A stretch of 64,000 nt of DNA from Thermoanaerobaculia bacterium (GTDB lineage: Bacteria; Acidobacteriota; Thermoanaerobaculia; Multivoradales; UBA5704): assembly GCA_035490435.1 (NCBI GenBank), contig DATHEF010000004.1, positions 216,044 to 280,043 of the forward strand. Reading direction: 5' to 3'. This document shows positions 1 through 41,935 of the stretch, piece after piece. Position numbers and translations under genes: made by a program. Below the pieces are notes generated by a model. It ran no database searches. It was not told where the DNA came from and was given only the letters and a program-made list of their open reading frames with translations. The stretch's first letter is position 1; the number at the start of each line of letters is the position of its first letter.

Positions 1-1487
1 AACTCGCGGAAGGCCTGGACCAGCTCCTCGCCGAACATGCGCGGTAGCAGCTCGCCGCGCTGCTGGCCGTCGCCGTGCTCGCCGGAGAGTGAGCCGCCGT
101 GGGCGACCACCAGATCCGCCGCCTCCTCCACGAAAGTCCGGTAGGTCCGGATCCCTTCCGGTGCGCGGAAGTCGAAGTCGATGCGGGCGTGCAGGCACCC
201 CTCTCCGAAGTGGCCGTAGAGGGCGGCGCCGAGGCCGTGGCGGGCAAGGAGGGCGAGGAGATCGCGGAGGTAGGGGGCAAGACGCTCGGGCGGCACCGCC
301 GAATCCTCCCAGCCGGGCCAGCCGTCGCCGAGGCGCGGATCGCGCGAGGTGGTCGCCACCGCGGCCTCACGCACCTGCCAGATCCTCGCCTGCTCGGCCG
401 GAGCCTCCACCAGCAGAGCCTTCGAAAGCTGGCGCGCCCGCTCCAGCGCCTCCTCCCGGCTTTCGCCGCCGAATTCGACAAGCAGCCAGGCATCCCCCGG
501 CGGGAGAAGAGCGAGCGTTTCGGGATAAGACCGGCGGGTGAACTCGTTGTCGACCAGGAAGCGGTCCATCCCCTCCAGGCCGATCGGCCCCGCCGCCAGC
601 ACCTCGGGAACGCTCTCGGCGGCGCGCACGACATCCGGATATCCCAGCACGGCCAGCACGCGGGCCTTGGGCGCCGGCGTCAGGCGCACGGTGGCCTCGA
701 GGAAGGTGACGCAGGTCCCCTCGGTGCCGGCGAGAGCGCGGGCGACGTGGAAACCCCGCTCGGGGAGGAGATCGTCCAGATTGAAGCCGGAGACCCGCCG
801 GGAGAGCTGCGGGAAGCGCTCGCGGATCAGCCCGGCGTAGCGGTCCCGCAACTCGCGCAGCCGGCGGTAGATCTCGCCGCGCCGCCCCCCGGAGCGGACG
901 ATGCGGTCGATCTCCGCCTCCGGCGTCGCTCCTACCCGCAGCCGCAGGCCGTCATAGGTGAGGATCTCCAGCTCCTCGACGTTGTCGGAGGTCCGGCCGG
1001 TGGTCAGCGAATGGACGCCGCAGGAGTTGTTGCCGATCATGCCGCCGACCGTGCACCAGCCGTGGGTGGCGGGATCAGGGCCGAAGGTGAGCCCGTGCCG
1101 TAGAGCGTCGCGGCGGAGGTCGTCGAGCACCGTGCCGGGGCGGACGCGGGCGATTCGCCGCACGGGATCGATCTCGCGCACGCCGGTCAGATGGCGCGAG
1201 GCGTCGATCACCACCGCCACGTTGCAGCACTGCCCGGCGAGGCTGGTGCCCGCGCCGCGGTGGACGATCGGAGCTCTATAACGCCGGCAGGCCGCCACCG
1301 CCGCGATCAGATCCTCGTCGTCCACCGGGACCACGACCCCGATCGGCACCTGCCGGTAGTTCGAGGCATCGGTGGCGTAGAGGGCGCGGTGCCCTGCGTC
1401 GAAGCGCACCTCGCCGCGCAGGGAGCGGCGGAGATCGTCCTCGAGAGCGGTGGTGTCGCCGGGCCAGGGATTTTCTCGTCGGATCAT
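1..1487 (-). CDS. FAD-binding oxidoreductase (GlcD / D-lactate dehydrogenase-like), C-terminal part runs off the window
   Basis: Manual minus-strand translation from ATG at 1487..1485 gives MIRRENPWPGDTTALEDDLRRSLRGEVRFDAGHRALYATDASNYRQVPIGVVVPVDDEDLIAAVAACRRYRAPIVHRGAGTSLAGQ..., a typical FAD_binding_4 (PCMH) N-terminus with RGAGTS. The frame stays open to the window edge; it is missing from the ORF track because no stop lies inside the window. Confidence 0.75.
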   Translation of the reverse strand, partial: MIRRENPWPGDTTALEDDLRRSLRGEVRFDAGHRALYATDASNYRQVPIGVVVPVDDEDLIAAVAACRRYRAPIVHRGAGTSLAGQCCNVAVVIDASRHLTGVREIDPVRRIARVRPGTVLDDLRRDALRHGLTFGPDPATHGWCTVGGMIGNNSCGVHSLTTGRTSDNVEELEILTYDGLRLRVGATPEAEIDRIVRSGGRRGEIYRRLRELRDRYAGLIRERFPQLSRRVSGFNLDDLLPERGFHVARALAGTEGTCVTFLEATVRLTPAPKARVLAVLGYPDVVRAAESVPEVLAAGPIGLEGMDRFLVDNEFTRRSYPETLALLPPGDAWLLVEFGGESREEALERARQLSKALLVEAPAEQARIWQVREAAVATTSRDPRLGDGWPGWEDSAVPPERLAPYLRDLLALLARHGLGAALYGHFGEGCLHARIDFDFRAPEGIRTYRTFVEEAADLVVAHGGSLSGEHGDGQQRGELLPRMFGEELVQAFRE

Positions 1488-1592
1488 CCGGATGGCAGGT
1501 TACCCCAGTCGGGGGCTTTCGTGTCCGTAGTATCATCGAGCAAATCCTGAATTCATGGGCATGCTCCAAGACCGTATCGGCGGGGAGGGCAG

Positions 1593-2237
1593 ATGGCGCG
1601 AAAGGTTCTCGAGATCACGCTGAAGTCCCTGACCATTCAGCACAACGGCGAGATCACACGCCAGGACGGGCACAACCTCCTGACGGTGTCGCTGATCTAC
1701 CCGTGTCCAGGCAAGCCCACGATCACCACCGTCAAGCCGCTCAGCCTCGGCGAGGGGATGACGGTCAATTTCGACGCCGCGCCCTACACCTACGCCGACC
1801 GCATCCTCTTCAAGGAAGAGGTGATCGGTCCGACCCTGCTGGTGGCGCAACTGACCGACGTCGAGGTGCTCTCCAAATTCAACAAGTTCATGGCCGGCCT
1901 CTTCTCGACTGCCTTCTCCGCGGCCTGGAACCTCTTCGCGCCGGGCGGGGGGAACCTGCTCCTGGCGGCCGCCACGCACTCGGTCGCCGCCCTGCAGCTC
2001 GACACGCTGAAGACTACCGATGGGGACCGGCTCTATGTGATCGGACGCGCCTCGCTGCCGATCGACACCGCCCAGGCGCTCCCCGCGGGGACCGTGCCGC
2101 TGATGGTGCCTAGCGACGTCAAGCGCGACAAATTCGTGTTCGCTCCCGGCAGCAGTCAGCCGACCCGGAAAGAGCAGTTCATCCTGGCGGCCGGGCAGCA
2201 GAACGGATCGATCACTTTCGGAATTCGCGAGCTCTGA
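1593..2237 (+). CDS. hypothetical protein (214 aa), no recognisable domain
   Basis: Clean ORF with protein-like composition, followed 20 bp later by a membrane-protein gene. Local GC is visibly lower (about 58-60%) than the flanks. Confidence 0.6.
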   Translation: MARKVLEITLKSLTIQHNGEITRQDGHNLLTVSLIYPCPGKPTITTVKPLSLGEGMTVNFDAAPYTYADRILFKEEVIGPTLLVAQLTDVEVLSKFNKFMAGLFSTAFSAAWNLFAPGGGNLLLAAATHSVAALQLDTLKTTDGDRLYVIGRASLPIDTAQALPAGTVPLMVPSDVKRDKFVFAPGSSQPTRKEQFILAAGQQNGSITFGIREL

Positions 2238-2256
2238 TCACTCAAGGAGGATTGCC

Positions 2257-3291
2257 ATGCTAGGTTCCATGGTTCTGGATGTCGGTATCGGCTTGGTTCT
2301 GATCTATTTCCTGCTGAGCCTGATCTGCTCGACGATCAACGAGGGTATCTCCAATTTGTTCGGCCTTCGGGCCGCGTCCCTCAAGGAAGGGCTGGATAAC
2401 CTGCTCGGGTCCGAGCTGGCGCAAGGTATCTTCGATCATCACCTCGTCAAAGGTCTGGTGCAGCAGGATGCGCTGCCCTGGAAGCGCCGGCCCTCTTACA
2501 TTCCAACCCGGACCTTCGTCATGGCGGCGCTCCACTCGCTGAACGGCCAGAATTTTCCCGCCACGGTCGACGAAGTCCGAGTGGCGGTTCAGAATGTCAA
2601 GGATGAGAATGTCCGGCGAGCTCTGCTGGCACTGATCGACGACGCCCGAGGTGATTTCAGCAAGATGAAAGACAACCTCGGAGTCTGGTTCGATCACTCC
2701 ATGGATCGGGTCTCCGGCTGGTATCGCAGAAAGATTCAGAGCTACATCCTCATCATCGCCATCTTCATCAGCTTCGGGCTGGGGGTGGATACACTCGCGC
2801 TCGTAAAGTTCCTGCGGGCGGATTCGACGCTGAGGGAATCTCTGGTTGCAGTGGCGAAGGCCGAGGTCGAGAAGCCCGCCGCGCCAACAGTGACTGACGG
2901 TGCCGCTCCCAGTCCGGGCGCGCAACCGAACGCGGCCCAGAACCTCAAGAAGGATCTGGTGAATCTCGAGACGCTCCAGACGCAGTTTTTCAATCTCAAC
3001 ATCCCGCGCTACCCGCTTTATTACTTCAAGGACCGTGTGAAGGATTGGCAGGCCGGCCAGCCGCAAGGACAGGTCGCGACGGTCGCCGCCCGAACTCCAC
3101 CCTCGCCAGGTTTCGTGGCGGTCTTGTGGTTCTGGTTCTGGCAGCACTCCCTGGGCTTCTTCATCACTTCCGTAGCTCTTTCACTGGGCTCTCCATTCTG
3201 GTTCGATCTGCTCAACAAGCTTGTGAGCCTGCGCTCGACAGGCCAGAAGCCGAAACCAGAAGCCGCGGCGATCCAGACGGTCCAGGGATAG
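2257..3291 (+). CDS. hypothetical integral membrane protein (344 aa)
   Basis: N-terminal TM ([19 protein letters not shown]), central TM ([18 protein letters not shown]) and C-terminal Trp-rich TM ([23 protein letters not shown]). RBS aaggagg upstream. Lower GC (about 55%). Confidence 0.6.
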
Positions 3292-3323
3292 GGTGGGGCG
3301 GGCGGGAGATATACTCCCCGCTC

Positions 3324-5057
<1,734 letters not shown>

Positions 5058-5081
5058 AGCGAGGGAGGAACGTCGGAGGTT

Positions 5082-5169
5082 GAGGACGCGGAAGGCGCGA
5101 GGCATCTGGAGGGTTGGCGCCGCCGCGGCGGCGCCAACCCTCCAGATCCCTCGTACCTTCCGCGTCCTC
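5082..5169. repeat. 88-bp near-perfect palindrome (long hairpin or cruciform; possible bidirectional terminator)
   Basis: gaggacgcggaagg(c/t)(g/a)cgagg(c/g)atctggagggttggcgccgccgc is followed by its reverse complement, so both strands give near-identical spurious ORFs (MRTRK(A/V)RGIWRVGAAAAAPTLQ...). Confidence 0.85.
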
Positions 5170-5215
5170 AACCCCTACCGAACCGCACTACACCGGGGCG
5201 AAAAGACCGGAGCGT

Positions 5216-5367
5216 CCGTGGCCTGCGACCTCATCCTCTGTCTCCTTCTCCTGAAGGAGAAGGAGGACGTATCTGGGCCGGCTCCTCTGCGCTTCGGCAA
5301 TGTCGCTTCAGACAGGTCCCTCCTCTCCTTCAGGAGAGGAGGACAGGAGGTGAGGTCGCAGGCCACG
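5216..5367. repeat. REP-like palindromic element (GGCCTGCGACCTCAyCCTC...CTCCTGAAGGAGArGGAGG family), two inverted half-copies
   Basis: The left arm cgtggcctgcgacctcatcctctgtctccttctcctgaaggagaaggagg pairs with the right arm ...cctcctctccttcaggagaggaggacaggaggtgaggtcgcaggccacg. A third half-copy lies at 54585..54632. Confidence 0.8.
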
Positions 5368-5439
5368 GATGCCACGATCTCGGCTGATACTCTCAGATCC
5401 CGGTTCCACCGTCGTCCGAGCGATAGGCAGCGCTGGCCC

Positions 5440-5893
5440 TCCGGATCGCGCTTTCCGCCTTCCGTGTTTCCGCATGGGCCCACGGGCTCTGCGGATGCGC
5501 CTCACCGATCTCCGAGTCCGCTTACCCGATCGCCGTGTCTTCCCGCCCGATCTCCACGTGCGCCCACCGGAACTGCGGTCGCGCCCCCTGGATCTCTGTG
5601 TGCGCCCTCTGGTTCCGCGATTGCGCCGGCTGGTTCTCTGTGTGTGCCCCCTGGAACTGCGGTCGCGCGCAAGGGAAGGCCGTGCCGGCGTGACGACGGG
5701 CTGACTCCGCTTTCCAGAGGGCTGGTGCGTGGAAGCAGAGGGCGCCAACACGAGACCAGAGGGCGCGGTCTGCCCTCAGAAGCTATGGGACGCGGCTCCA
5801 GAGGGCGCAATCGCAGCTCCAGAGGGCACACACGGAAAAACCAGAGGGCACGGTCCACCGAGCAGAGGGCGCGACCGCATCAGCAGAGGGCGC
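5440..5893. repeat. complex intergenic repeat cluster: inverted arrays of short GCGCCCTCTGG / CCAGAGGGCGC motifs
   Basis: Left arm carries gcgccccctgg, gcgccctctgg and gtgccccctgg units. The right arm carries six cagagggcgc/cagagggcac units spaced 20-30 bp. The arms are imperfect reverse complements of each other over about 200 bp. Confidence 0.8.
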
Positions 5894-5897
5894 TACG

Positions 5898-6773
5898 CTA
5901 GCGTCCTTCGATCGGTACCGCGAACTGGTCGAGCTGAGTCAGATCGCGCCGGTAGGCGGTGACCGCCACGCGGTCCGGATAGACGTCGACGACGCAGAAG
6001 TGGTTCACCTTCTCGAAGACGTCGCCAGGAACCCCGAGCTCGGGGTGCTCGCCGTCGTAGAGCGGGGCGCCGCCGCCGCCGGTGACGACGTAGGTGATGC
6101 CGTCCCTCAGGGTGCGGTAGTAGATGTGGTCGTGCCCCTCGAAGACCAGGCGGACCCCGTATTTCCTGAACAGCGGATGGAGGATCGCCTGCAAGGCCAG
6201 GATTCCGCTCTCGTCGGCGTGGGGTCCGGTCGAGAAGATCGCCTTGTGGAAGAAGGGGACGATGAGCTTCCCCTCGGACCGCGCCCTGGCGAGGTCGGCT
6301 TCGAGCCAGCGCCCCTCCTCGCTCGCCGGGTCGAGCGGCTGCTGGGTGTCGACGGCGATGAAGTGGAGGTTCCCCTTCTCGAAGGAGTAGTAGAGCTTGT
6401 TGCCGGAGAGGAACGGCTGGGTCACCCGCTGCTCGTAGTAGCCGTGGGTGCCCATGTCGTGGTTGCCGCGGGCCGGGTAGTAGGGGATCTGCCGCCGCAT
6501 GTCGCCGGTGATCTCGTCGAAGATCCGCCATTCGTCCGCGGCGTCGCCATGGCGAACGAGGTCGCCGGTCTGCAGGACCAGCGCCGGCTGGAAGCTCATC
6601 ACTCCCTTGACGATCTCGCGGTGGATGTCGTGGTTGTCGCGGGTGTCGCCATACGCGGCGAAGCGGAGCAGGGCTCTCGCCGGCGCCGGCAAGGGGTTCT
6701 GAGCCTGGGGCGTCTGGGAGCAGGCGGAGACCAGCAGGGCGAGCAGGAAGGCGAAACAGGGGGTGGGTTTCAT
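5898..6773 (-). CDS. calcineurin-like metallophosphoesterase, secreted or lipoprotein
   Basis: MKPTPCFAFLLALLVSACSQ signal/lipobox, then GDTRDNH...GNHD...GHDH metallophosphatase motifs. Start trimmed from the 791-aa ORF-track call to the Met preceding the signal peptide. Confidence 0.8.
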   Translation of the reverse strand: MKPTPCFAFLLALLVSACSQTPQAQNPLPAPARALLRFAAYGDTRDNHDIHREIVKGVMSFQPALVLQTGDLVRHGDAADEWRIFDEITGDMRRQIPYYPARGNHDMGTHGYYEQRVTQPFLSGNKLYYSFEKGNLHFIAVDTQQPLDPASEEGRWLEADLARARSEGKLIVPFFHKAIFSTGPHADESGILALQAILHPLFRKYGVRLVFEGHDHIYYRTLRDGITYVVTGGGGAPLYDGEHPELGVPGDVFEKVNHFCVVDVYPDRVAVTAYRRDLTQLDQFAVPIEGR

Positions 6774-6845
6774 CGGAGTCTCCTTGGCGGGGTAGAATAG
6801 GGCAAAGCTTCGATCTGATCCACGCGCCCGAGGGAGGAGAATCCG

Positions 6846-8150
6846 ATGCGCCGCTCCGCCGCGTTCCGTTCCGTCGCCCTGGCGACTCTGCTGCTCTTCT
6901 CCGTCTCCTGCGTCTCGACGCGGCTGCCGCCGATCTCGAGCCAGGGCGGGGCTTTCGAGCCGCTGCACGACGAGCAGATCCTCTGGGACCAGTCCCGGGG
7001 GGAGGAGAGGAAGCTCCTCGAGGACATCCGGCTCTACAAGGATCCGGGCCTCGACGCCTATCTGGAGGAGGTGGTCGCCCGCCTCAACCCGCCCGGCATG
7101 GCCTCCAATGAGGCCGTGCGGTACCGGGTGCGAGTGATCGAGGACCCCACGCTCAACGCCTTCGCCTACCCGCACGGCTCGATCTATGTCCACACCGGGC
7201 TGCTCGCGCGTTTGGAGAGCGAGGACGAGCTGGCGACGGTGCTCGGCCATGAGATGACCCACGTCGAGAACCGCCACATGCTGCGCTATCAGCGGAGCGC
7301 CCACAACAAGGAGATCGGCCTCTCGATCGCCGCCGTCACCGCCTCGGTAATCCTCGCCGGTGTCGAGGGGGATGCCCTGAATGCCGGCGACTGGGGGAAA
7401 GCGGCGGCGATCGACCTCTTCGGCAATCTGCTCGTCGGGCTCGGGCTGGATCTCGCCTTCCAGGCGTCGGTCAACGGCTACGGCCGCGGTCTCGAGGAGG
7501 AGGCGGACCTGGGCGGCTTCACCAAGCTGGCCGCGGCGGGCTACGACCTCCAGGAGGCGCCGAAGGTCTACCAGGCGCTCCTCGACGACCAGGGGGAGCC
7601 CCACCGGGCCGAGGCGTTCTTCTTCGGCAGCCATCCGCGCCTGAGCGAGCGGATCGAGGTCACCCGGCGCTATCTGGGAGCGCACGCGGCGGTGGCGGGC
7701 GTGGTGATCGACCGCGCCGGCCGGCAGGAGGCCTTCGCCCGCCACCTCCGGCCGCTGGTGCGGGAGGACGCCCGGCTCAACATCGAGATGGGGCGGCTGA
7801 TGCTCGCCGAGGCCGAGCTCCGGAGGGTGCGGGAGTGGATGCCCGAAGACCCCGAGACCCACTTCCTCAAGGGGCGGCTGCGGCTCGCCCAGTCGGTCGC
7901 CGAGCAGAGCCCGGAGGCGCGGGCGCGGCTCCAGGGGGAGGCCGAGGACGCTTTCCGCAAGGCGATCGAGCTCGACGGCGACCGCCCGGCGCCGCACCGC
8001 GAGCTGGGGCTGCTGCTGCGCGAGCGCAAGGACTTCCGCGGCGCCTGCGTGCAGCTCCGGCGCTACGAGCAGCTCGATCCGCAGGCCGACGACGCCGGGC
8101 AGATCGAGGATTCGATCGCCGAGTTGGAGGGGTTCGGCGGCTGCGGGTAG
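6846..8150 (+). CDS. M48 family zinc metallopeptidase with C-terminal TPR-like region
   Basis: Signal peptide; HEMTH (HExxH) with downstream E; Peptidase_M48-type context (LGHEMTHVENRHM). Confidence 0.8.
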   Translation: MRRSAAFRSVALATLLLFSVSCVSTRLPPISSQGGAFEPLHDEQILWDQSRGEERKLLEDIRLYKDPGLDAYLEEVVARLNPPGMASNEAVRYRVRVIEDPTLNAFAYPHGSIYVHTGLLARLESEDELATVLGHEMTHVENRHMLRYQRSAHNKEIGLSIAAVTASVILAGVEGDALNAGDWGKAAAIDLFGNLLVGLGLDLAFQASVNGYGRGLEEEADLGGFTKLAAAGYDLQEAPKVYQALLDDQGEPHRAEAFFFGSHPRLSERIEVTRRYLGAHAAVAGVVIDRAGRQEAFARHLRPLVREDARLNIEMGRLMLAEAELRRVREWMPEDPETHFLKGRLRLAQSVAEQSPEARARLQGEAEDAFRKAIELDGDRPAPHRELGLLLRERKDFRGACVQLRRYEQLDPQADDAGQIEDSIAELEGFGGCG

Positions 8151-23115: not shown

Positions 23116-23523
23116 TCAGAACTTCGCGCGGACGGCACTCACGAACTGAAGCAGATCGTCCAGATGATCTTTAATGATCTTCTTGACAATCGCCCCGTTG
23201 AGCCGTTCGTAACCGTGAACGATGATGTTCCGGAAGCCGACCATGTCCCGCAACGAAGCCGTGAGCTCGTGGGAGATCCAGCCATAACGGGCGAGGAGCT
23301 CGAAGAATTCACGGTTGTTGTGAGCCTCGCCCAAGCGATCGTCGGAAACGATATGGGCTGCCACGTCGAGAGCGGATTGGATTGCGATGTGCAGGGTATA
23401 CGCTGCGAAGCGAAGCTCGCGAAGATCGTCGGGAATAGCTTCGAGATGAACCAAGGTGCGCAGCTCTCCAACGCTGGTCTCGATGAGAACAAGTTTCTTA
23501 GCGACCAATTGATAATCCGTCAC
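23116..23523 (-). CDS. hepT: HepT (DUF86) nucleotidyltransferase-substrate-binding toxin
   Basis: Rx4HxY motif FRNIIVHGY; 135 aa; 4-bp overlap with the upstream MntA gene; locally AT-richer than the flanks. Confidence 0.8.
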   Translation of the reverse strand: MTDYQLVAKKLVLIETSVGELRTLVHLEAIPDDLRELRFAAYTLHIAIQSALDVAAHIVSDDRLGEAHNNREFFELLARYGWISHELTASLRDMVGFRNIIVHGYERLNGAIVKKIIKDHLDDLLQFVSAVRAKF

Positions 23524-23930
23524 CTCGGTTTCTCTCCCATTCTCCGGTACATCTTCAAATAGGGCTCCAGGTCCAGGAACTCGAATCGGGTCTTCACCTC
23601 GAAGCGGACACGTTTCGGCCGGTCCCGGTCTACGAGCAGCTTGCCGTCTCGGAGCACTCTGATAGTGAGATCCACCGGAGCGTAGTTGAGGACGACCACC
23701 TGAACGGGAACCCTGAGCAGGCTCTCGATCTCGCCTTCGAGTCGGAACCCCATTCCCTCCAGGGTGAGCGGAGGGTCCTCAAGGTAGAGAATGCCGATGT
23801 CCACATCGCTTTTTGGCCCCGCCGTCCCCCGAGCCACGCTGCCGAAGAGGTAGGCCGCGGCGATGCCTTCCCGCTCGGCGTTCGCGGCGAAGAATTCGCG
23901 GAGCCGTGCCTCGATCGCTTCAGGGTCCAT
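23520..23930 (-). CDS. mntA: MntA-type minimal nucleotidyltransferase antitoxin
   Basis: GSVARGTAGPKSDVDIG (GSx9-13DxD NTase motif). Confidence 0.8.
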   Translation of the reverse strand: MDPEAIEARLREFFAANAEREGIAAAYLFGSVARGTAGPKSDVDIGILYLEDPPLTLEGMGFRLEGEIESLLRVPVQVVVLNYAPVDLTIRVLRDGKLLVDRDRPKRVRFEVKTRFEFLDLEPYLKMYRRMGEKPR

Positions 23931-33743: not shown

Positions 33744-35186
33744 ATGAGAAGCGTTTTCTGGATCGTTCTGACACATGTCCTCTGGGCGTCCGCGGGGTTC
33801 GCGGCGGCGCCCGCGCCGGCCAAGCCCGCCGAACTGCCGCGCGGAACCCTGGTCGAGAAGGTGACCTGCGCCGGCGCTCCGGATCAGGCCTACGCCCTCT
33901 ATCTGCCGTCCAACTACACCCCGGACCGCCGCTGGCCGATCCTCTACGCCTTCGACGCCCGCGCGCAGGGCCGGCGGGTGGCCGAGCTCTTCCAGCAGGC
34001 CGCCGAGACCCATGGCTGGATCCTGGTCAGCTCCTGGAACACGGCGAGCGATGGGCCGGCGGAGCCCAACTTTACCGCCATGCACGCCCTGTGGGCCGAC
34101 ACCCACGCCCGCTTCGCCATCGACGACGCGCGCGTCTATGCCGCCGGCTACTCCGGCACCGTACGCTTCGCCTGCATCCTCGCCCTCACCGCGCCGGGGA
34201 CGATCGCCGGGATCATCGGCGCCGGCGCCGGCTTCCCCTTCGGATCGCCGCCGAAGAAGGACAACCCGTTCGCCTTCTTCGGCACGGTCGGCGACCGCGA
34301 TTTCAACTACTACGAGATGAACGACCTCGACGCGGCAATGAAGGCCCTGGCCCTCCCGCACCGCATCGAGCACTTCTCCGGCCTGCACGACTGGCCGCCG
34401 GCCGGTCTCGCCATGAAAGCGGTGGCCTGGATGGAGCTGCAGGCGATGAAGGCGGGCAAGCGGGAGAAGAGCCCCGCGCTTGTCGAGTCGGAATGGAACC
34501 GCGACCGCGAGCAGGCCCGGTCGCAGGCCGCCGCTCACCCCGCGGACGCGCTCCACACCTGGTCCGCGATGGCTGCCGACTACGCCGGGCTGCGCGACGT
34601 GGCCGAGGCCGAGCGCAAGGCCGCGGCCCTCGCCGCCTCGCCGGCCTGCCGGAAGGAGCTCCGCGAGCGCGACGAGCGGGACCGCCGCGACAAGGATCTC
34701 CTCGCCCGGGCGCCGGCGATCCTGGCGCGCGCCAATCCCGGCAACGAGCCGGTGACCGCGGCGCAGATCGCCGCCGAGCTGAAGATCCCGGAGCTCAAGG
34801 TACGCGCCGCCTCGGCCGACCCGGAGGAGAGCCTCTCCGCCAAGCGGATCCTCAACACCTACCTGGGGCAGACGATGTTCTACCAGCCGCAGTCATTCCT
34901 CGAAAAGAAGGAGTACGACCGCGCTGTCTTCATGATTTCAGTGGGCGCCGAGATCCGCCCCGAGGAGCCGGGCCCCTGGGTAGAGATCGCGGCCATCCAC
35001 GCCCGCAAGGGGAAAGCCGGCCGCAAGAAGGCCCTGGAAGCCCTGCGCACCGCGGCGGACAAGGGGCTCGCCGATCCCGCCGCCCTGGACCGGGAAGCCT
35101 TCAACGACCTGCGGCAGGACGAGGAGTTCCGGCGGATCGTGGCCCAGGTGATGGGGCGCAAGAGCGCCGGTCCACCGAATAGATAG
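33744..35186 (+). CDS. secreted alpha/beta-hydrolase (esterase) with C-terminal helical/TPR-like domain
   Basis: Signal peptide MRSVFWIVLTHVLWASAGFAAA; nucleophile elbow GYSGT; divergent from the hmuTUV-like operon, so a siderophore/heme-associated esterase is possible. Confidence 0.6.
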   Translation: MRSVFWIVLTHVLWASAGFAAAPAPAKPAELPRGTLVEKVTCAGAPDQAYALYLPSNYTPDRRWPILYAFDARAQGRRVAELFQQAAETHGWILVSSWNTASDGPAEPNFTAMHALWADTHARFAIDDARVYAAGYSGTVRFACILALTAPGTIAGIIGAGAGFPFGSPPKKDNPFAFFGTVGDRDFNYYEMNDLDAAMKALALPHRIEHFSGLHDWPPAGLAMKAVAWMELQAMKAGKREKSPALVESEWNRDREQARSQAAAHPADALHTWSAMAADYAGLRDVAEAERKAAALAASPACRKELRERDERDRRDKDLLARAPAILARANPGNEPVTAAQIAAELKIPELKVRAASADPEESLSAKRILNTYLGQTMFYQPQSFLEKKEYDRAVFMISVGAEIRPEEPGPWVEIAAIHARKGKAGRKKALEALRTAADKGLADPAALDREAFNDLRQDEEFRRIVAQVMGRKSAGPPNR

Positions 35187-35271
35187 AAGCCTTCGCGATA
35201 GGACCGTTCATGCCAGCGCCTGAACCGAGAGCGCAGCCGATATTATTCTCTGTTCGGGAGATAATACGGAC

Positions 35272-35511
35272 ATGAAGACCCTGTCCCTGAGACTTCCGGA
35301 CGCCTTGGATGACCAGCTTGAATCGCTGGCTGGCAGACTGCGGACCACCAAGACGGCGGTCATTCGTGAAGCGATATCCGCCTATCTCAACGAGAACAGC
35401 CCTCCGGCCCGAGAGTCCTTTGCGTCGCTGGCTCAAGATCTCTCCGGATGGATTGAGGGCCCCGAGGATCTCTCGGTGAATCCAGACTATCTCGCTGGCT
35501 ACGGCAAGTGA
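35272..35511 (+). CDS. ribbon-helix-helix (CopG/VapB-like) antitoxin
   Basis: 79 aa, MKTLSLRLPDALDDQLESLAGRLRTTKTAVIREAISAYL RHH fold. Confidence 0.7.
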   Translation: MKTLSLRLPDALDDQLESLAGRLRTTKTAVIREAISAYLNENSPPARESFASLAQDLSGWIEGPEDLSVNPDYLAGYGK

Positions 35512-35524
35512 GGAGGAAACCCTC

Positions 35525-35653
35525 ATCGCTTGCCTGGTGCGAATGTCAGAGTTGCACCCGGACGCGGTTCTGCTGACCCTCGATTCCGATTTCAGGATCT
35601 ACCGCAGGAATCGTCGGTCCATGATTCCGACATTGATGCCCACGATCCGCTGA
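35525..35653 (+). pseudogene. remnant 3' fragment of a PIN-domain (VapC-like) toxin gene
   Basis: Frame +1 relative to the antitoxin reads ...LHPDAVLLTLDSDFRIYRRN..., resembling a PIN C-terminus. It has no start codon and no N-terminal catalytic acidic residues. Confidence 0.35.
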
Positions 35654-35715
35654 CGAGGAACTCCGGCGCGCCCGGTCTCGGATGGCCGGGCGCAAGAAAC
35701 CGGGTGAGCCGCCCG

Positions 35716-35892
35716 TCAGCAGAGAGTCGAATTGCAGAGACAGGTATCGAAACAGGCCGTGTTGGCGCCCGACCCGCATATCCAGGGGCAGGTGTCCGAG
35801 CGCCCGCCGCCGGCCTCGCGCAGGCTGGTCTTCCCGAGAGACCGCAGGGTCTCGCGGCTGAGCTCGAGCTTCTTCGGGAGTCTCTTTTTCAT
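35716..35892 (-). CDS. small Cys-rich precursor-like peptide A (58 aa) with double-glycine-type leader
   Basis: MKKRLPKKLELSRETLRSLGKTSLREAGGG|RSDTCPWICGSGANTACFDTCLCNSTLC; SD GGAGGA 9 nt upstream of the ATG. The leader and about 40 bp of upstream sequence are duplicated at 36848..36905. Not in the ORF track. Confidence 0.7.
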   Translation of the reverse strand: MKKRLPKKLELSRETLRSLGKTSLREAGGGRSDTCPWICGSGANTACFDTCLCNSTLC

Positions 35893-35961
35893 GGGGATGG
35901 TTTCCTCCTGCCCTGAACTCTACAACGGAAGTAGAATCCCGTCCCGATAAGGAGAGATCCC

Positions 35962-36411
35962 ATGCCCAAAGTTTCCCACGAACAGGCCCTTGCCGAGATG
36001 GAGAGCGTGCTCGGCATGGTCCGCGCGAACGCTGACCGGTTGCCCCCACTCGCCCTTCAGGTCGCGGACAAGCTCGAGGCCATCATCGCCGAGTTCAAGG
36101 CCGCGAGGATTGAGCAGCAGGATCTGCTCGCAAAGCGGATCTTGAAGACCGAGGAGATCATGTCCCTGATTGCCCAGGGCAACCGTGCCGCGCGCGATCT
36201 GCGGGCCTTCGTCATTCTCGCATTGGGTACGCGGCACCCGTTGCTCAAGCAGTTTGGAATCGGCATCCGCGGCCGCCGCCGCCGCAAGGCCCGGAAGGTT
36301 TCCGTGCCCACCGCCAGACCCTCCGCGGCCCGCCTGGAACCCGTCGAGCCCGCCCTGGAACCGTTCGCAGGAAGTCCGGACGATCTCCAGGCCGCCGCCG
36401 AAGGCGCGTAG
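35962..36411 (+). CDS. hypothetical helical protein (149 aa)
   Basis: RBS aaggagag; protein-like composition; lies between the two leader-peptide genes and directly upstream of the 21-bp tandem repeat block. Confidence 0.45.
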   Translation: MPKVSHEQALAEMESVLGMVRANADRLPPLALQVADKLEAIIAEFKAARIEQQDLLAKRILKTEEIMSLIAQGNRAARDLRAFVILALGTRHPLLKQFGIGIRGRRRRKARKVSVPTARPSAARLEPVEPALEPFAGSPDDLQAAAEGA

Positions 36412-36530
36412 AACGCGCCGGAGCCTCTCCGGGATGTCATGGAACCCGTCCGGCCCTGCTCGTAACGTTTTGAGCGCTGCCGACCCGAAAGGGGGGATGG
36501 CCGCCGAAATAGGGCAGCCGCCGGAGAGAA

Positions 36531-36762
36531 TGGGGGAGGCGTCCGGAGACTTGGGGGAATCGATTTTCGGAATTGGGGAACCGCCTCCGCGAGTTGGGGA
36601 AGCGGTCTCGCCAATGGGGGAGACGCCCGGAGCCTCAGGGGAAAGGGCCGCCCGAATCGGGGAGGCGTCTCCGCGCTGCGGGGAACCGTCCCGCGACTCC
36701 GGGGAGACGGCGAAACGAAAAGGGCGATCGTCTCCGTGCCTGGGGGAACCGTTCCCGGAAGA
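36531..36762. repeat. tandem array of about 10 x 21-22 bp direct repeats (consensus TGGGGGArnCG..CTCCG...)
   Basis: Units start at about 36531, 36552, 36574, 36595, 36615, 36638, 36659, 36680, 36701 and 36741. The 21-bp period equals two helical turns and seven codons. Confidence 0.8.
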
Positions 36763-36847
36763 CCCATGAGAAGCCGGTCAGCCGTCTACTCGCACGCCGC
36801 AGGGTCTCGCGGCTGAGGTCGAGCTTCCTCGGGAGTCTCTTCTTCAT
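36635..36847 (-). CDS. leader-peptide paralog B (70 aa): conserved MKKRLPRKLDLSRETLR leader fused to an Arg/Pro-rich heptad-repeat tail
   Basis: The leader DNA and upstream promoter/RBS are nearly identical to peptide A. The sequence diverges after ETLR and the 3' part is encoded by the tandem repeats (RFPQARR RSPFSFR RLPGVAG RFPAARR RLPDSGG). Confidence 0.5.
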   Translation of the reverse strand: MKKRLPRKLDLSRETLRRASRRLTGFSWVFRERFPQARRRSPFSFRRLPGVAGRFPAARRRLPDSGGPFP

Positions 36848-36907
36848 GGGGTGCTCCTCCTTTGCCCTAACTCTACACCGGACCGGACTCCAGAGCTGAG
36901 CCTTGGG

Positions 36908-37309
36908 CTAGGCGGGGACGGTGACGACTTCCAGTCCATCAATCGACTGGAAGTGTCTGGCGTTGTGGGTTACCAGAGGAAGGTGGTGTCGGACCGCGGT
37001 CGCAGCGATCCAAGCGTCTGCCAGGGAGATCGGGCGTCCCCTTCGCGACATGATTCGGGCCCACTCCCAACTCATCGCGTCATCGTAGGGGAGCACGGCG
37101 TAATTTCTGAGATGCTCCCGGAGCGATTGGACCCGATGTTCTCCCCAATTGCGGGCGAAAGGCCAGCGGTACAGCTCGGCGACTGACATGAATGAGAGGC
37201 ATAGAAGCCTTCCCTTGAGGTGCTCCCAGTAGTGCGGAGCCAGGGAATGCCCCTTCAGGAGGTAGGAAACTACGGATGTATCGACGACGAGACCTTCCAC
37301 CCTCCTCAA
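36908..37309 (-). CDS. vapC: PIN-domain toxin (VapC family)
   Basis: VVDTSVVSYLL N-terminus (first catalytic Asp), ...LPLVTHNARHFQ C-terminus; 4-bp overlap with the upstream antitoxin gene. Confidence 0.75.
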   Translation of the reverse strand: MRRVEGLVVDTSVVSYLLKGHSLAPHYWEHLKGRLLCLSFMSVAELYRWPFARNWGEHRVQSLREHLRNYAVLPYDDAMSWEWARIMSRRGRPISLADAWIAATAVRHHLPLVTHNARHFQSIDGLEVVTVPA

Positions 37310-37512
37310 TCCCGCTCCTGCCGCCAGCGAACGAGTTCCTCCTCGAATCCATCCTGAAGCTCTTCCGTGGGCCAGCCCCCGACGACCTCCTCAAGACGCT
37401 CGACCGGGCGAACGTTCTGCATCTTGGCCAGCTCCTCCAGAGTGGGGCCGGACCAGAACTCACCCGGGATTACGCCACGGCCTTTCGGGTCTTTCCTATC
37501 GTGGACGGCCAT
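37306..37512 (-). CDS. type II antitoxin partner of VapC (68 aa)
   Basis: Small acidic protein translationally coupled to the PIN toxin. Confidence 0.6.
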   Translation of the reverse strand: MAVHDRKDPKGRGVIPGEFWSGPTLEELAKMQNVRPVERLEEVVGGWPTEELQDGFEEELVRWRQERD

Positions 37513-37552
37513 CGTTTACCTCCATGGCAAGTGTAGCAGGCTGTTGGCCGAC

Positions 37553-39081
37553 TACTAGGAGCCTGCGCGCCAGGAATCCTGAGGCGAGATGTCCCCCTGC
37601 TGGGCGAGCGATCGCTGATTTCTCTAGGATGCTCTCCGTTCGAAAGAGCAGGGGGCCGAGCGGTTGGAGGAGAGCAAGTCCCGGGCGAGCTTGTCTTGGC
37701 CGGGCTTTCTCTTCTCACATCGCTTGGAGTAGCGGCCTCATCTGGCGTAAGTTCAGCGCAAGACAGACCAACGTCCATTCTCCGGACACCTTCGTCAGCC
37801 CTCTCAGGCTGAACTGCCGGAAGCCGAGCACCGACTTGATCCAACCGTTGACCGGCTCCACGATGCTCTTGCGCTTGGAGTAGCGTTTGCGCCCCTCTTC
37901 AGTTTCCAGCTTCTGCCTCATTCTTTGTGTCGCTGGGTGCCTGTCTTCGTTTGTCACCTTCGCCTTCTTGCCTTCTCGCCCCAGGGCCACATAAGCGTCG
38001 ATCCGAGAGGCCTCCAACTTCTGGAGGTTCTCCTCCGAGCGATACCCTGCATCAGCCAACACCGCCTGCGGAAACTTGCCGACGTTGGTGTGAGTCTCTT
38101 CCAACACCGGCAGCAGTTCATCATGGTCAGCACCACTCTGCGTGATCTTGGCTGCGAGGATCAGCCGCGACTCACTTTCCACCGCCAGTTGACCGTTGTA
38201 GCACTGCTCGAAGCCGGACGACGTCTTCATGATCCGGCTTTCTGGGTCCGTGAAGTTGTCCTGCTTTTTTTCCGGCGGCTCGCCGAAATCTCGCTTCGTC
38301 TTGCCCTCCTCGGCACAGGCCGGAACCGCTTTACGACCGGCGGCCTGATCCTCCGCGGCTTGGCGCGACCGCAGACGCTCAATCGCTTCCTGAATCTTGC
38401 CCAGACGCTGCTCGCGACGCTTTAGCTCCTCAGGTATCTCATCACCCGTGTTGTCCGGCCCGTACTGAGCATCCTCCTGCGCGTCCACACGCGCCGCTCG
38501 CGACGTCAACTCAACGATGTCCGCTTTCAGACGATCTTTCTCTTGCTTCATCCGCCCATAGCTCATCGCCTTGCGCTTGCTCGCCGACGCCTTCACTTTC
38601 GTACCATCCACCGCCACCGTCCCCATCCGGAGCAACCCCGCCTCCCGCGCCACCTCGATCACCTGCACAAACAGACCTTGGAAAGACAACAGGTGGCGCT
38701 GGCGAAACTCTGCGATCGTCCGGTGGGCCGGAAAGTTCTCCCCGGCCAACACCCGAAACGCCACGTCCTCCTGCAACTTCTTGGCGATTTTGCGAGAGGA
38801 AAAGACACCCGTCGCATAGCCATAGAGCAGCAGCTTGACCATCATCCGCGGATCGTACGGACTGTTGCGACGGCCATCTCCCTCGTAAGGCTCGTAGAAG
38901 GCCTTCAGATCCAGAGCATCGACCGTGTCCGACAGGAAGTACGCCAGGTGGCCCTCCGCAAGCCAATCCCGCGGCGACGGCGGAAGAAGAAGAGACTGTT
39001 CCGGAACGTAGCGACGAAAGGTCGTTGGCATACGGCTATTTTACCGCATGCCAACGATTCCTGCCGCGCAGGCTCCTAGTA
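37553..39081. mobile_element. IS1182-family (IS5-like) insertion sequence, about 1.5 kb, with 26-bp terminal inverted repeats
   Basis: Left end tactaggagcctgcgcgccaggaatc (37553..37578); right end gattcctgccgcgcaggctcctagta (39056..39081). Reverse complement matches 25 of 26 positions. A single transposase gene lies inside. Confidence 0.75.
37715..39031 (-). CDS. IS1182/IS5-family DDE transposase
   Basis: N-terminal LLLPPSPRDWLAEGHLAYFLSDTVDALDL (DUF772/InsH N-terminal motif); DDE catalytic domain in the C-terminal half. Confidence 0.8.
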   Translation of the reverse strand: MPTTFRRYVPEQSLLLPPSPRDWLAEGHLAYFLSDTVDALDLKAFYEPYEGDGRRNSPYDPRMMVKLLLYGYATGVFSSRKIAKKLQEDVAFRVLAGENFPAHRTIAEFRQRHLLSFQGLFVQVIEVAREAGLLRMGTVAVDGTKVKASASKRKAMSYGRMKQEKDRLKADIVELTSRAARVDAQEDAQYGPDNTGDEIPEELKRREQRLGKIQEAIERLRSRQAAEDQAAGRKAVPACAEEGKTKRDFGEPPEKKQDNFTDPESRIMKTSSGFEQCYNGQLAVESESRLILAAKITQSGADHDELLPVLEETHTNVGKFPQAVLADAGYRSEENLQKLEASRIDAYVALGREGKKAKVTNEDRHPATQRMRQKLETEEGRKRYSKRKSIVEPVNGWIKSVLGFRQFSLRGLTKVSGEWTLVCLALNLRQMRPLLQAM

Positions 39082-41117
39082 CAGGACTACGGTGCGGTCC
39101 GACCGGAACCGCTCGCCTGGTTTGCCCGTCTGGCTGAGGAACAGGCGGTTGATCTCGACAGCCTTGCCTTCCTGCTGGAACAGATCCCGGAGAGCAGTCT
39201 GGTTTTTCGAGAGCTAGCGGCAACTCTTTCGGCTCGCGCCGTGGAACTCGCGCGTAATCAAGATGCGCTCGAAACTCTGGCTCTGCTTCTCAACAACTTG
39301 TCCGTCCGCCTAAGCGATCTCGGCCGTCAAGAGGAGGGCCTGGAAGCCTGTGAGGAGGCGGTCAAGCTGTATCGTCAGCTCGTCTCCTCGCGCCCCGATG
39401 CCTTCTGCCCCGATCTGGCGATGTCGCTCAACAACTTGTCCATCGACCTGACAGATCTCGGCCGTTGGGAGGAGGCTTTGGCGGCTTGTGAGGAGGCGAT
39501 CAAGCTGTACCGCCATCTCGCTACCTCGCGCCCCGCCCTCCGCCCCGATCTGGCGATGCGCTCAACAACCTGTCCGGCCGCCTGAGCAATTTCGGCCGAC
39601 GGGAGGAGGCTCTGGCGGCCTGCGAAGAGGCGGTAGAGCTGTACCGCCAGCTCGGCGCTTCACGTCCCGACGCCTTTCGACCCGATTTGGCGACGTCGCT
39701 CAACAACCTGTCCAACGACTTGGGCTATCTCGGCCGTCGGGAGGAGGCTCTGGCGGCCTCTGAGGAAGCAGTCAAGCTGTACCGTCATCTCGCCACCTCG
39801 CGCCCCGACGCCTTCCGTTCCAATCTGGCTAGTGCGCTTAATAACCTGTCCGGCCACTTGAGCGATCTCGACCGTCGGGAGGAGGCTTTAGCGGCCTGTG
39901 AGGAGGCGGTAGAGCTGTACCGCCAGCTCGGCGCTTCACGTCCCGACGCCTTCCGATCCGATCTGGCGATGTCACTCAACAACCTGTCTGTCCGCTTGAG
40001 CGATCTCGACCGTTGGGAGGAGGCCTTGGTGGCTTGCGAGGAGGCAGTAGAGCTGTACCGCCATCTCGCTGCCTCGCGCCCCGACACCTTCCGGCCGGAT
40101 CTGACGATGTCGCTCAATAATCTGTTCGGCCGCTTAAGCAATCTCGGCCGTCAGGAGAAAGCTTTGGTGGCCTGCGAGGAGGCGGTAGAGCTATACCGCC
40201 AGCTCGCCACCTCGCGTCCAGACGTCTTCCGACCCTCTCTAGCGATGTCGCTCAACAACATGTCCGTCGGCCTGAGCGATGTCGGACGTCGGGAGGAGGC
40301 TCTGGCGGCCTGCAAGGAAGCGGTAGAGATCGGGCGCCATCTCGCCGTCTCGCGCCCCGACGTCTCCCGACCCGATCTGGCGATGTCGCTCAGCAACCTG
40401 TCCAACCGCCTGAGTGATGTCGGGCGTCGGGAAGAGGCTCTAGTGGCCTGCGAGGAGGCGGTAGAGATCCGGCGTCATCTCGCCGGCTCGCGCTCCCACG
40501 TCTTCCGACCCGATCTGGCGACGTCGCTCAGCAACCTGTCCATCCGCCTGAGCGATGTCGGGCGTCGGGAAGAGGCTCTGGTGGCCTGCGAGGAGGCGGT
40601 AGAGATCCGGCGTCATCTCGCTGCCGCACGCCCCGACGTCTTCCGATCCCCTCTGGCGGGTGCACTCAACAACCTGTTCGGCCGCCTGAGCGATGTCGGG
40701 CGTCGGGAGGAGGCTCTGGCCACCTGCGAGGAGGCGGTAAAGCTGTACCGCCATCTCGCCACCTCGCGCCCCGACGTCTTCCGGCCCGATCTGGCGATGT
40801 CGCTCAACAACCTGTCGGTCGGCCTGAGCGATCTCGGCCGGAAAGAGGAGGCCCTGGAGGCCTGCGAGAAGGCGGTAGAGATCCGGCGTCAGCTCGCCGC
40901 TGCACGCCCCGACGCCTTCCGACCCGATCTGGCGATGTCGCTTAACAACCTGTCTGTCTGCCTGAGTGCTCTCGAGCTTTGGGAGGAAGCCCTAGCGGCC
41001 TGCGAGGAGGCGGTCCGGACCCTTTCGCCGTACTTTCTCGCCTATCCCGCTGCATTTAGGGACCGGATGGCTATCTTGGCACGGGTCTACCTCCAATGCG
41101 CCGAGGAAGCAGGATAG
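39082..41117 (+). pseudogene. TPR-repeat (TPR_10/12-like) protein gene, 5'-truncated by the IS and carrying a frameshift near 39567
   Basis: About 14 tandem 42-aa repeats (RPDAFRPDLAMSLNNLSxRLSDLGRREEALAACEEAVELYRQLAxS). The upstream ORF 39025..39585 starts inside the IS right end and loses frame at ...DLAMRSTTCPAA, a 1-nt deletion relative to the repeat consensus. The repeats continue in another frame at 39687..41117. Confidence 0.65.
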
Positions 41118-41214
41118 GCACCCGACGCGGACCTTCTTTCACAGGTAGAAGCGTTGCTGGGCTCCTCGGGCGAACCTGACTGAAATGACAGGGCGCCCTC
41201 AGAGGTTGTCGCCC

Positions 41215-41517
41215 CTACTCCGGCAACTCGATCGTCTGCTTCTCGGGATCCGGCTGCTGCCGGTACAAGGTGACCACGAAGCCGATGAGGCCGACCCAGG
41301 CGCTGCCGGTGCGCTCGGCGATCTCGTCGGCGATCTCCTTCTTGCGGCCTTCGGAGTTGGAGATCCTCACCTTGATCAACTCGTGGTCGTCCAAGGCCTT
41401 GTCGATGATCTCGACCACCGAATCGGTGAGGCCGTTCTTTCCCACCTGGATCATGGGCTTGATGTAGTGGGCCATGCCCCTCAGGTACTTCCGTTGCGCG
41501 CCGGTCAGCTCTGCCAT
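41215..41517 (-). CDS. YhbY/CRM-domain RNA-binding protein
   Basis: LTGAQRKYLRGMAH...QVGKNGLTDSVVEIIDKALDDHELIKVRI matches YhbY. Start trimmed to MAELTGAQ. Confidence 0.75.
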   Translation of the reverse strand: MAELTGAQRKYLRGMAHYIKPMIQVGKNGLTDSVVEIIDKALDDHELIKVRISNSEGRKKEIADEIAERTGSAWVGLIGFVVTLYRQQPDPEKQTIELPE

Positions 41518-41626
41518 TTCGTCGTCTCCCTCCTGGCGCATTCTGTGGGAGAGCGGGCGCGGCGTAAAGGCGGGGGCCGCCGCGCGCCTCCTGTTTCTTG
41601 GGAGGGTGCGGCGGCCAGGGAGAGGA

Positions 41627-41935
41627 CTAGAGGTCGCCGCTGAGGGTCACCGCGAAGTTCGTGCTCGTTCCGCCGGGCGTAGCGAAGTAGTAGTTGTTGC
41701 CCGTCTTGACCTTGGACGACGGGAAGGCCGCGCCGTTCTGGATGGTGGTGACGACCGGGTCGGTGCCGCTGACGTCCTGCATGATCGAGCAGGTGGTCGA
41801 GTCCGGCATCGAGACCGTGATGTTGCCGCTGGCGGGCACCTGGAGGAACTTGAAGTTTTCGCTGGAACGGTTCTTCTGGCCGCTGAGCGGCTTGGGGGCG
41901 GAAACCTGGGCGGCGATCGACTGGTTGGTGCTCAT
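41627..41935 (-). CDS. small beta-rich hypothetical protein (102 aa), single-domain homolog of the 44844..45629 protein
   Basis: ...KTGNNYYFATPGGTSTNFAVTL and NITVSMPDSTTCSIMQ align with both repeats of the 261-aa protein; RBS ggagaatccc. Confidence 0.55.
   Translation of the reverse strand: MSTNQSIAAQVSAPKPLSGQKNRSSENFKFLQVPASGNITVSMPDSTTCSIMQDVSGTDPVVTTIQNGAAFPSSKVKTGNNYYFATPGGTSTNFAVTLSGDL

Follow-up and report, generated by a model that had tools for sequence, protein, structure and literature searches.

Within a 64,000-nucleotide stretch of a Thermoanaerobaculia bacterium genome (contig DATHEF010000004.1; hereafter the window), two adjacent genes on the forward strand, labeled here geneA (1593..2237) and geneB (2257..3291), form a conserved and unannotated pair, in which geneB has been replaced in situ as a gene-sized cassette between near-identical backgrounds. 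geneA encodes a lineage-specific protein of 214 amino acids with a predicted C2-type beta-sandwich fold. geneB encodes a protein of 344 amino acids with three predicted transmembrane (TM) helices, which belongs to a very large uncharacterised family. The genes that adjoin its members, and the domains fused to them, suggest that the family acts in biological conflict or cell lysis. I therefore favour, tentatively, a reading in which geneB permeabilises or gates the membrane in a regulated way and serves conflict or lysis modules as their constant membrane component, with geneA as a membrane-binding accessory.

Both proteins originate from a metagenome-assembled genome of this bacterium (502-kb contig), where they correspond exactly to the GenBank entries HTG31415.1 (geneA, locus tag VLB76_00690) and HTG31416.1 (geneB, locus tag VLB76_00695), each annotated as 'hypothetical protein'.

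Replacement of geneB at a conserved locus

The gene order FAD-oxidase, geneA, geneB, thiamine pyrophosphate (TPP) enzyme is kept in every related Thermoanaerobaculia contig examined that carries geneA (labeled L001, L006, L007, L009, L092 and L095–L098). geneA lies directly upstream of geneB in all ten loci that possess it, and was never seen without geneB. Across the relatives, identity to the window is 82–96% for the TPP enzyme, 69–91% for geneA, and 34–86% for geneB. Compared to L095 and L097, the window shows 94–95% identity in the FAD-oxidase, 93% in geneA and 95–96% in the TPP enzyme, with a synonymous divergence (dS) of 0.20–0.28; for geneB, identity is 61% and dS is 0.9–1.1. The same pattern is found between L006 and L095, with 94% identity in the FAD-oxidase, 99% in geneA and 98% in the TPP enzyme (dS 0.14–0.18), versus 63% in geneB (dS 1.0). 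Across pairs, the dS of geneB is 0.9–1.2, and that of the FAD-oxidase, geneA and TPP enzyme 0.14–0.30; the synonymous divergence of geneB is 4–6 times that of the flanks.

A four-way alignment, scanned with a sliding window, delimits the replaced cassette to positions 2192..3364, where DNA identity to L095 and L097, the nearest genomes with a different geneB allele, drops from 88–98% to 10–80%, to recover beyond it. Along the alignment, identity is 88–98% up to about position 2190, 33–80% across geneB, and 88–97% from about position 3365. The breakpoints fall at the borders of geneB, and the divergence between allele classes spans the whole gene, not the variable loop (described below) alone.

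At least three or four geneB allele classes occupy this one slot. Class I is found in the window, L006, L007 and L098, with a GC content at third codon positions (GC3) of 0.75–0.79. Class II (GC3 0.90) is found in L095 and L097; its nearest relatives are in L001 and L002, and the divergence from these is roughly concordant with that of the flanks. Class III, in L092 and L009, is a long form with a GC3 of 0.76, and a further divergent pair is present in L005 and L008. A low GC3 is therefore a property of classes I and III, and not of class II. The lower GC3 of geneB could in principle have inflated its dS, but I rejected this explanation: the window and L092 share a GC3 of ∼0.76, yet their dS is 1.6, and L095 and L097, of the same allele class, have a dS of only 0.23.

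The original prediction tentatively interpreted the two genes, a compact soluble-plus-membrane pair, as a horizontally acquired module, with a GC content of about 55–60% against about 70% in the flanks. Both genes are indeed lower in GC (64.3% for geneA and 58.8% for geneB, compared with 70–72% in the genes on either side and 68.1% over the whole window), but less uniformly than had been claimed, and GC3 is lowered in geneB only. For geneA, GC3 is 0.883, compared to a mean of 0.879 (standard deviation 0.072) for the 45 likely genes of the window. Its GC deficit is confined to codon positions 1 and 2, and since GC3 equals the window mean, the low GC of geneA reflects its amino-acid composition. 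The GC3 of geneB, at 0.748, is ∼1.8 standard deviations under the window mean, and several other genes of the window are equally low.

In addition, the dS of geneA equals that of the flanks throughout, indicating that geneA is vertically inherited. As it is native in both composition and phylogeny, there is no inserted two-gene island. Conserved synteny in relatives, which the original prediction had named as evidence against itself, is found for the locus in all related contigs examined. Horizontal acquisition holds for geneB alone, as shown by its dS relative to the flanks and by the drop in identity at its borders, with recovery in both neighbours; the allele in the window is also low in GC3. 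From this cassette pattern it follows that the low GC of geneB marks a swapped allele and not an inserted island.

The open reading frames (ORFs) of 214 and 344 amino acids are confirmed, and both are real genes, under purifying selection (ratio of nonsynonymous to synonymous substitution rates, dN/dS, of 0.15–0.37). Direct reading of the sequence identifies a Shine-Dalgarno-like element, GGGGAGGG, for geneA (1582..1589, plus strand, 3 nt before the ATG), and a canonical AAGGAGG ribosome-binding site for geneB (2244..2250, plus strand, 6 nt before the ATG), located within the geneA-geneB spacer. The genes are tightly coupled, as had been described, and the ribosome-binding site of geneB is strong, but the spacer is 19 bp and not 20. 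The flanks are metabolic genes: on the minus strand upstream lies the 5′ part of a ∼950-amino acid FAD_binding_4/FAD-oxidase_C/Fe-S oxidase, and the TPP enzyme gene begins at 3324, 32 bp 3′ of geneB, followed by genes for a metallophosphoesterase and an M48 peptidase. A promoter and terminator scan identified no promoter-like site, and no terminator-like structure between geneB and the TPP enzyme gene. Positions 1–8000 of the window contain no integrase or transposase and no Rfam family, and the borders of geneA-geneB are free of mobility genes, tRNA and direct repeats.

In some relatives, an accessory gene of 204–212 amino acids, with a weak match to DUF3782, fills the space that separates the FAD-oxidase gene from geneA or geneB (L002, 7209–7847, minus strand; L092, 2947–3561, minus strand; 81% mutual identity). 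It is absent from the window, and its presence in some genomes indicates that the intergenic space on the FAD-oxidase side tolerates insertions. The 212-amino acid gene beside geneB in L002 was considered as a geneA homologue, and rejected, as it corresponds to this accessory gene also found in L092.

Family, anatomy and genomic neighbours

A profile generated from 72 geneB homologues identified 17,080 cluster representatives at E ≤ 1e-3, and 8,158 at E ≤ 1e-30, each representing a cluster at 50% identity. A motif scan located geneB relatives in at least 593 species genomes, with a very wide distribution, usually as a single gene, that includes Acidobacteriota, Nitrospirota, Bacteroidota, Pseudomonadota, Verrucomicrobiota, Actinomycetota, Planctomycetota, Gemmatimonadota and Chloroflexota. 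All source names seen for these relatives are 'hypothetical protein', save for one generic Joint Genome Institute annotation ('uncharacterized membrane protein YgcG'). The statement that neither protein has a recognisable domain is borne out: geneA and geneB have no match at E ≤ 1 in Pfam, NCBIfam or PADLOC (PADLOC-DB 2.0), and no toxin or antitoxin family was detected in these; a PHROGs search with both proteins returned one chance-level match only. No solved structural relative of geneB was found, nor any viral structural match in BFVD, and full-text literature searches on the geneB family motifs (PFWFD, APFWF, RVSGWY) and on bacterial C2 proteins returned nothing relevant.

The geneB features described here are all on the plus strand. 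Hydropathy and conservation define a first TM helix, TM1 (residues 5–27; 2269..2337), with a conserved LSLICSxINE motif. This is followed by a helical domain (residues 36–160; 2362..2736), seen as helices in the structural model, which ends in a near-invariant motif and includes the invariant residues W144, R151, S153 and W155. TM2, identified from hydropathy, spans residues 161–183 (2737..2805). Next comes a hypervariable linker (residues 186–284; 2812..3108), delimited from per-region identity and length range; among the 72 homologues it is the most divergent region both in length (48–141 residues) and in sequence, and it also shows the lowest DNA identity between geneB allele classes (0.33–0.6). 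Finally, hydropathy and hydrophobic moment identify a Trp/Phe-rich TM3 (residues 285–309) and a C-terminal amphipathic helix with the SLG(A/S) family signature (together 3109..3246). Residues G300, A307, G311, P313, F314, W315, F316, D317, L319 and R326 are invariant in this C-terminal part, which, together with TM1, is the best-conserved portion of the protein. The description of geneB as Trp-rich is correct to a modest degree: 8 of its 344 residues are Trp (2.3%), and most of these lie in the C-terminal membrane segment.

The topology of geneB is likely N-out/C-in, because the positive-inside rule places the RRK stretch preceding TM2 and the Lys/Arg-rich tail in the cytoplasm. The helical domain (36–160) and the C-terminal amphipathic helix would accordingly be cytoplasmic, and the linker (186–284) would form a loop outside. 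One fusion is consistent with this arrangement, as an extra TM helix separates its cytoplasmic nSTAND1 NTPase from the geneB domain.

geneA is, in contrast to this wide family, confined to one lineage. Only 34 homologues were found among 5.8 billion sequences, profile search included, all from Thermoanaerobaculia metagenomes and with 36–97% identity to the geneA of the window; the profile search for distant relatives added only five more proteins, from the same lineage. The mean column identity of the family is 76%, and geneA evolves faster than its flanks at the protein level (dN/dS 0.36 versus 0.14). Its predicted fold is an eight-stranded antiparallel beta-sandwich with C2 topology, in a model of moderate confidence. 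On this model geneA is a C2 domain at the level of the fold only, with no curated C2 profile matched at E ≤ 1 in Pfam or NCBIfam, and chance-level matches only in sequence-profile searches of the PDB. Acidic and polar residues are conserved in loops (E20, D89, E91, N18, R23).

Inserted into the beta-sandwich of geneA is a helical hairpin (residues 92–145; 1866..2027, plus strand), assigned from secondary structure, with a low predicted local distance difference test (pLDDT) score and a column conservation of 0.78. Its two helices (residues 97–115 and 120–135) are rich in Ala, Gly, Phe and Leu, and F99, G102, F104, F108, A111 and P117 are invariant. The hairpin is a candidate membrane-inserting or partner-binding element. 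The original prediction described geneA as soluble, and indeed no segment reaches the TM hydropathy threshold, the hydrophobic hairpin included; the presence of this conserved hairpin nonetheless qualifies the description. The lack of a signal peptide would place geneA on the cytoplasmic side, where it is probably a peripheral or monotopic membrane protein.

The neighbours of geneB relatives were surveyed at the 80 best-scoring loci, by crude longest-ORF calling. A neighbour was considered tightly coupled if encoded on the same strand with a gap of ≤100 bp, and 52 such neighbours were found in 78 loci, from many phyla. About 28 of the 52 are degradative or conflict-type proteins, the families including PG_binding_1 (9), Amidase_2 (5), and Peptidase_S8 or kumamolisin (4). 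Downstream of geneB relatives (35 scanned), these are PG_binding_1 (6), Amidase_2 (4), Peptidase_S8 (4, three of them with a pro-kumamolisin domain), Tle1-like lipase (2), PLC-type phosphoesterase (2), Peptidase_M15_4 (2), patatin (2), Endonuclease_NS, NucS_C, GH75 with PG_binding_1, and a transglutaminase-like protein. Upstream (17 scanned), they are CHAP with PG_binding_1, Amidase_2, PG_binding_1 and a SIR2-NB-ARC protein. None of these families has two or more members among control ORFs of the same loci, more than 2.5 kb away (n = 110). All-against-all clustering of 87 loci revealed no neighbour family conserved across the geneB family; the commonest occurs in 9 of the 87, all within the Thermoanaerobaculia synteny. 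It is the functional class of the immediate neighbours that recurs, and not any single family.

Inspection of the N-termini showed that most partner enzymes start without a signal peptide. Signal-less hydrolases of many classes sit 1–16 bp from geneB relatives, and Amidase_2, M15_4 and CHAP neighbours are found at this distance in many relatives, though not in the window. RefSeq annotation independently confirms the pattern of neighbours. On a Hymenobacter canadensis plasmid, a geneB-like gene has a non-specific endonuclease gene upstream, and 1 bp after it comes an N-acetylmuramoyl-L-alanine amidase gene and then an S8 peptidase gene. On a Caballeronia plasmid, the order is a geneB-like gene, an amidase gene 1 bp further on, and the gene of a peptidoglycan-binding protein, and on a Rhizobium plasmid a patatin gene precedes a geneB-like gene by 11 bp. 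A Vitreoscilla plasmid carries a geneB-like gene alone.

Fusions of the geneB domain are rare, and involve a CHAP/PG_binding_1/glycoside-hydrolase-like protein, a trypsin-like peptidase, or an N-terminal nSTAND1 NTPase, the latter in the order NTPase, TM helix, geneB domain. The CHAP-type and trypsin fusions possess no extra TM helix, which places their enzymes on the predicted cytoplasmic side.

Two further loci can be described here. In Massilia sp. UBA9086 (L086, 1587–6340), a geneB relative is preceded, at 49 bp, by the gene of a SIR2_2-NB-ARC (STAND) protein of 982 amino acids and followed, at 55 bp, by that of a PG_binding_1 protein. Proteins of the SIR2-NB-ARC (STAND) type are known from anti-phage defence. 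In Pyrinomonadaceae (L003/L004, 8001–16900), three proteins of 131, 573 and 297 amino acids with no domain match are encoded after a geneB relative (36% identity), on its strand; further on come an SH3_3-glycoside hydrolase 19 protein and a patatin-like protein of 1135 amino acids. This could be a larger effector cluster.

Possible roles of geneB and geneA

In the reading that I tentatively favour, geneB would be a three-TM inner-membrane protein, holin-like in its logic, acting alone or on a cue sensed in the envelope. Its action would compromise the membrane, and cytoplasmic partners could then reach the envelope, leading to cell death, lysis or release. In other phyla, the family would supply the unchanging membrane partner for a changing set of signal-less degradative enzymes. 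The turnover of allelic cassettes may reflect the selection typical of conflict genes, with the outside loop under diversifying pressure. geneA, presumably co-transcribed upstream, would sit on the cytoplasmic face of the same membrane, as a regulator or membrane-acting partner. It may contact the conserved rather than the allele-specific parts of geneB, if contact occurs at all. It is also possible, if on balance doubtful, that the whole family, with its ∼17,000 clusters spread over most phyla of soil and water, is an unrecognised part of modular cell-death or lysis systems, constant, envelope-sensing and membrane-breaching, with plug-in leaderless hydrolases or, in this lineage, geneA, and with an allele diversity kept by recombination at one fixed chromosomal slot.

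A number of observations weigh against this proposal. Neither geneA nor geneB has any homology or experimental link to a protein of known function. The geneB family is essentially absent from phages (no tblastn match among 50,697 phage records, and only 2 loci in 2.9 million viral contigs), and geneB, at 344 amino acids (300–450 in the family), is far larger than classical holins. With an overall dN/dS of 0.2–0.3, geneB shows no gene-wide positive selection. It occurs in the same neighbourhood without geneA in L002, L005 and L008, and its alleles swap with geneA unchanged, which speaks against a close co-adaptation of the two genes. An obvious effector neighbour is missing from over half of the family loci sampled, in a survey limited to best-scoring loci and simple ORF calls, and no hydrolase adjoins geneB in the window, where its neighbours are geneA and the TPP enzyme. 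A PADLOC scan of ten diverse geneB relatives and fusion proteins gave marginal matches only, outside the geneB domain. Since PADLOC matches neither these nor the two proteins of the window, the suggestion of an abortive-infection, defence or toxin-immunity module is unconfirmed for this locus, but it is plausible at the level of the family, from its neighbours and fusions.

Alternatively, geneB could scaffold or regulate wall and membrane remodelling, controlling autolysins and lipases much as other membrane proteins control amidases, with geneA as a lipid-binding accessory and no role in conflict. Such a housekeeping function in the envelope would fit the stable chromosomal position between metabolic genes across the class, the purifying selection, the very wide distribution as a usually single gene, and the numerous peptidoglycan-acting partners. 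I nonetheless consider it unlikely, as the partners also include nucleases, sedolisin/S8 proteases, Tle1, patatin and PLC lipases and a SIR2-NB-ARC protein and mostly have no export signals, and because a STAND NTPase fusion exists. Furthermore, housekeeping genes are not usually exchanged as gene-sized alleles between near-identical genomes.

The proximity of signal-less hydrolases of many classes, at 1–16 bp, could also suggest that geneB is a non-lytic conduit, moving leaderless exoenzymes over the inner membrane for nutrition or antagonism, with geneA as cargo or helper. Holin-dependent non-lytic secretion is an established concept (PMC9527704, PMC13284979), and the outcome would be comparable to that of holin-dependent type 10 secretion. 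However, this leaves unexplained the STAND NTPase fusion, the fused enzymes on the predicted cytoplasmic side, and the cassette turnover. Many loci, the window included, have no enzyme partner, and geneA has no enzymatic domain, making export a rather improbable role.

The deeply diverged alleles exchanged at a fixed locus, and the variability of the predicted outside loop in length and sequence, would be expected if phages, bacteriocins or contact-dependent toxins exploited this loop as a receptor, with the physiology of geneB unrelated and the hydrolases incidental. This is distinctly improbable, since the enrichment of hydrolases relative to the control set, and the fusions, are hard to call incidental, and since allele divergence covers the whole gene. 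Last, a compact two-gene abortive-infection, defence or toxin-immunity island of recent horizontal origin could account for the GC below that of the flanks, the tight coupling, the lack of known domains and a geneB allele foreign to its background, but is very improbable and, for geneA, already contradicted: geneA is host-like in GC3 and concordant with the flanks in dS, the locus is syntenic in all relatives with no mobility genes, tRNA or border repeats, there is no PADLOC match or recognisable toxin or antitoxin, and geneA and geneB do not travel together, because geneB swaps alone.

If the proposed membrane-breaching role of geneB is correct, it would provide a function for one of the larger membrane-protein families absent from Pfam and NCBIfam. 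The family would then be a gatekeeper for leaderless lytic and lipolytic enzymes and the terminal effector of some STAND NTPases, and would tie a holin-like logic to non-phage, chromosomally stable conflict modules. The idea is directly testable, as culturable carriers with simple two-gene arrangements exist in Hymenobacter, Caballeronia, Rhizobium, Chitinophaga and Flavobacterium. The gene-sized replacement in near-identical uncultured Acidobacteriota illustrates that a gene low in GC need not belong to an inserted island but can be a swapped allele, and geneA, as a stand-alone bacterial C2 fold with a hydrophobic hairpin, bears on the evolutionary history of membrane-targeting C2 domains.

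Other features of the window and comparison with known systems

Elsewhere in the window, positions 5058–5897, between the TPP enzyme and metallophosphoesterase genes, form an 840-bp stretch with no convincing ORF, packed with repeats. These include a near-perfect palindrome of 48+48 nt (5078–5173), inverted arms of 72 nt (5204–5275 and 5309–5380), and units of ∼21 nt with GCGCCCTCTGG (5560–5668) that face CCAGAGGGCGC units (5713–5893). Rfam has no match for this repeat stretch. In the matching interval, relatives hold a TIR_2-WD40 gene and a TspO gene, for which tblastn found no trace in the window. A broad region of lower GC (0.60–0.66), at ∼35000–42000, includes several genes with a GC3 of 0.70–0.76, among them 37715–39031 (minus strand) and 39687–41117 (plus strand), and is more credible as an acquired island than geneA-geneB. 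Finally, two small genes of 135 and 136 amino acids at 23116–23930 (minus strand), overlapping by 4 nt, have GC3 values of 0.68 and 0.78, among them the lowest of the window, and the GC over 1 kb dips there to 0.598; this pair could be toxin-antitoxin-like or otherwise acquired.

Among known systems, holin-endolysin cassettes and type 10 secretion (TcdE, ChiW/ChiX) resemble the geneB family in that a membrane gene lies beside signal-less Amidase_2, M15 or CHAP hydrolases, and in that the partner requires disruption or gating of the membrane to reach its substrate. Holins are typically 70–150 amino acids in length, with 1–4 TM helices. They share with geneB the small number of TM helices and a charged cytoplasmic C-terminal tail, which in geneB is Lys/Arg-rich and accompanies three TM helices. 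However, geneB family members, with their conserved helical domain of ∼125 residues, fall outside the holins by size, and, being virtually absent from phage genomes, by origin. Their partners also extend to lipases, proteases and nucleases, and in the window there is no adjacent hydrolase.

A second comparison is with EACC1, a small domain whose one conserved TM helix contains a glycine-rich patch, and whose 3′ partner characteristically has an N-terminal caspase (Kaur et al., 2020; PMC7159879). As in the geneB family, a constant membrane component stands beside a highly variable effector component, and there is a link to the nSTAND1 NTPase clade (PMC8195603). Because of this link I considered geneB as a possible EACC1, and rejected it on the definition of that domain (PMC7159879): geneB combines three TM helices with a large helical domain, its partners are mostly stand-alone hydrolases, the two have no sequence relationship, and there is no caspase among the scanned tightly coupled neighbours of geneB relatives.

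geneA differs from the C2 domains of synaptotagmin, Munc13, ITCH/NEDD4 and perforin by the lack of a Pfam C2 sequence match, by the 54-residue hydrophobic helical hairpin between its strands, and in that it is a bacterial protein that stands alone and is restricted to a single lineage of Acidobacteriota; its fold is predicted from a model of moderate confidence. The geneA-geneB pair also differs from type II toxin-antitoxin and toxin-immunity pairs, as the two do not co-vary: geneB alleles change while geneA stays 93–99% identical.

Lastly, variable allelic cassettes are known for surface-antigen, kin-recognition and defence hot-spot genes. Unlike these, a single gene is exchanged here and not an operon or island, and no mobile-element or recombinase genes are found near geneB. 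As in these, deeply diverged alleles occupy one syntenic slot, with breakpoints at the gene borders and an atypical composition in a native neighbourhood. geneB therefore matches two known kinds of system, as a membrane partner of leaderless effectors, and as an allelic cassette at a fixed locus.

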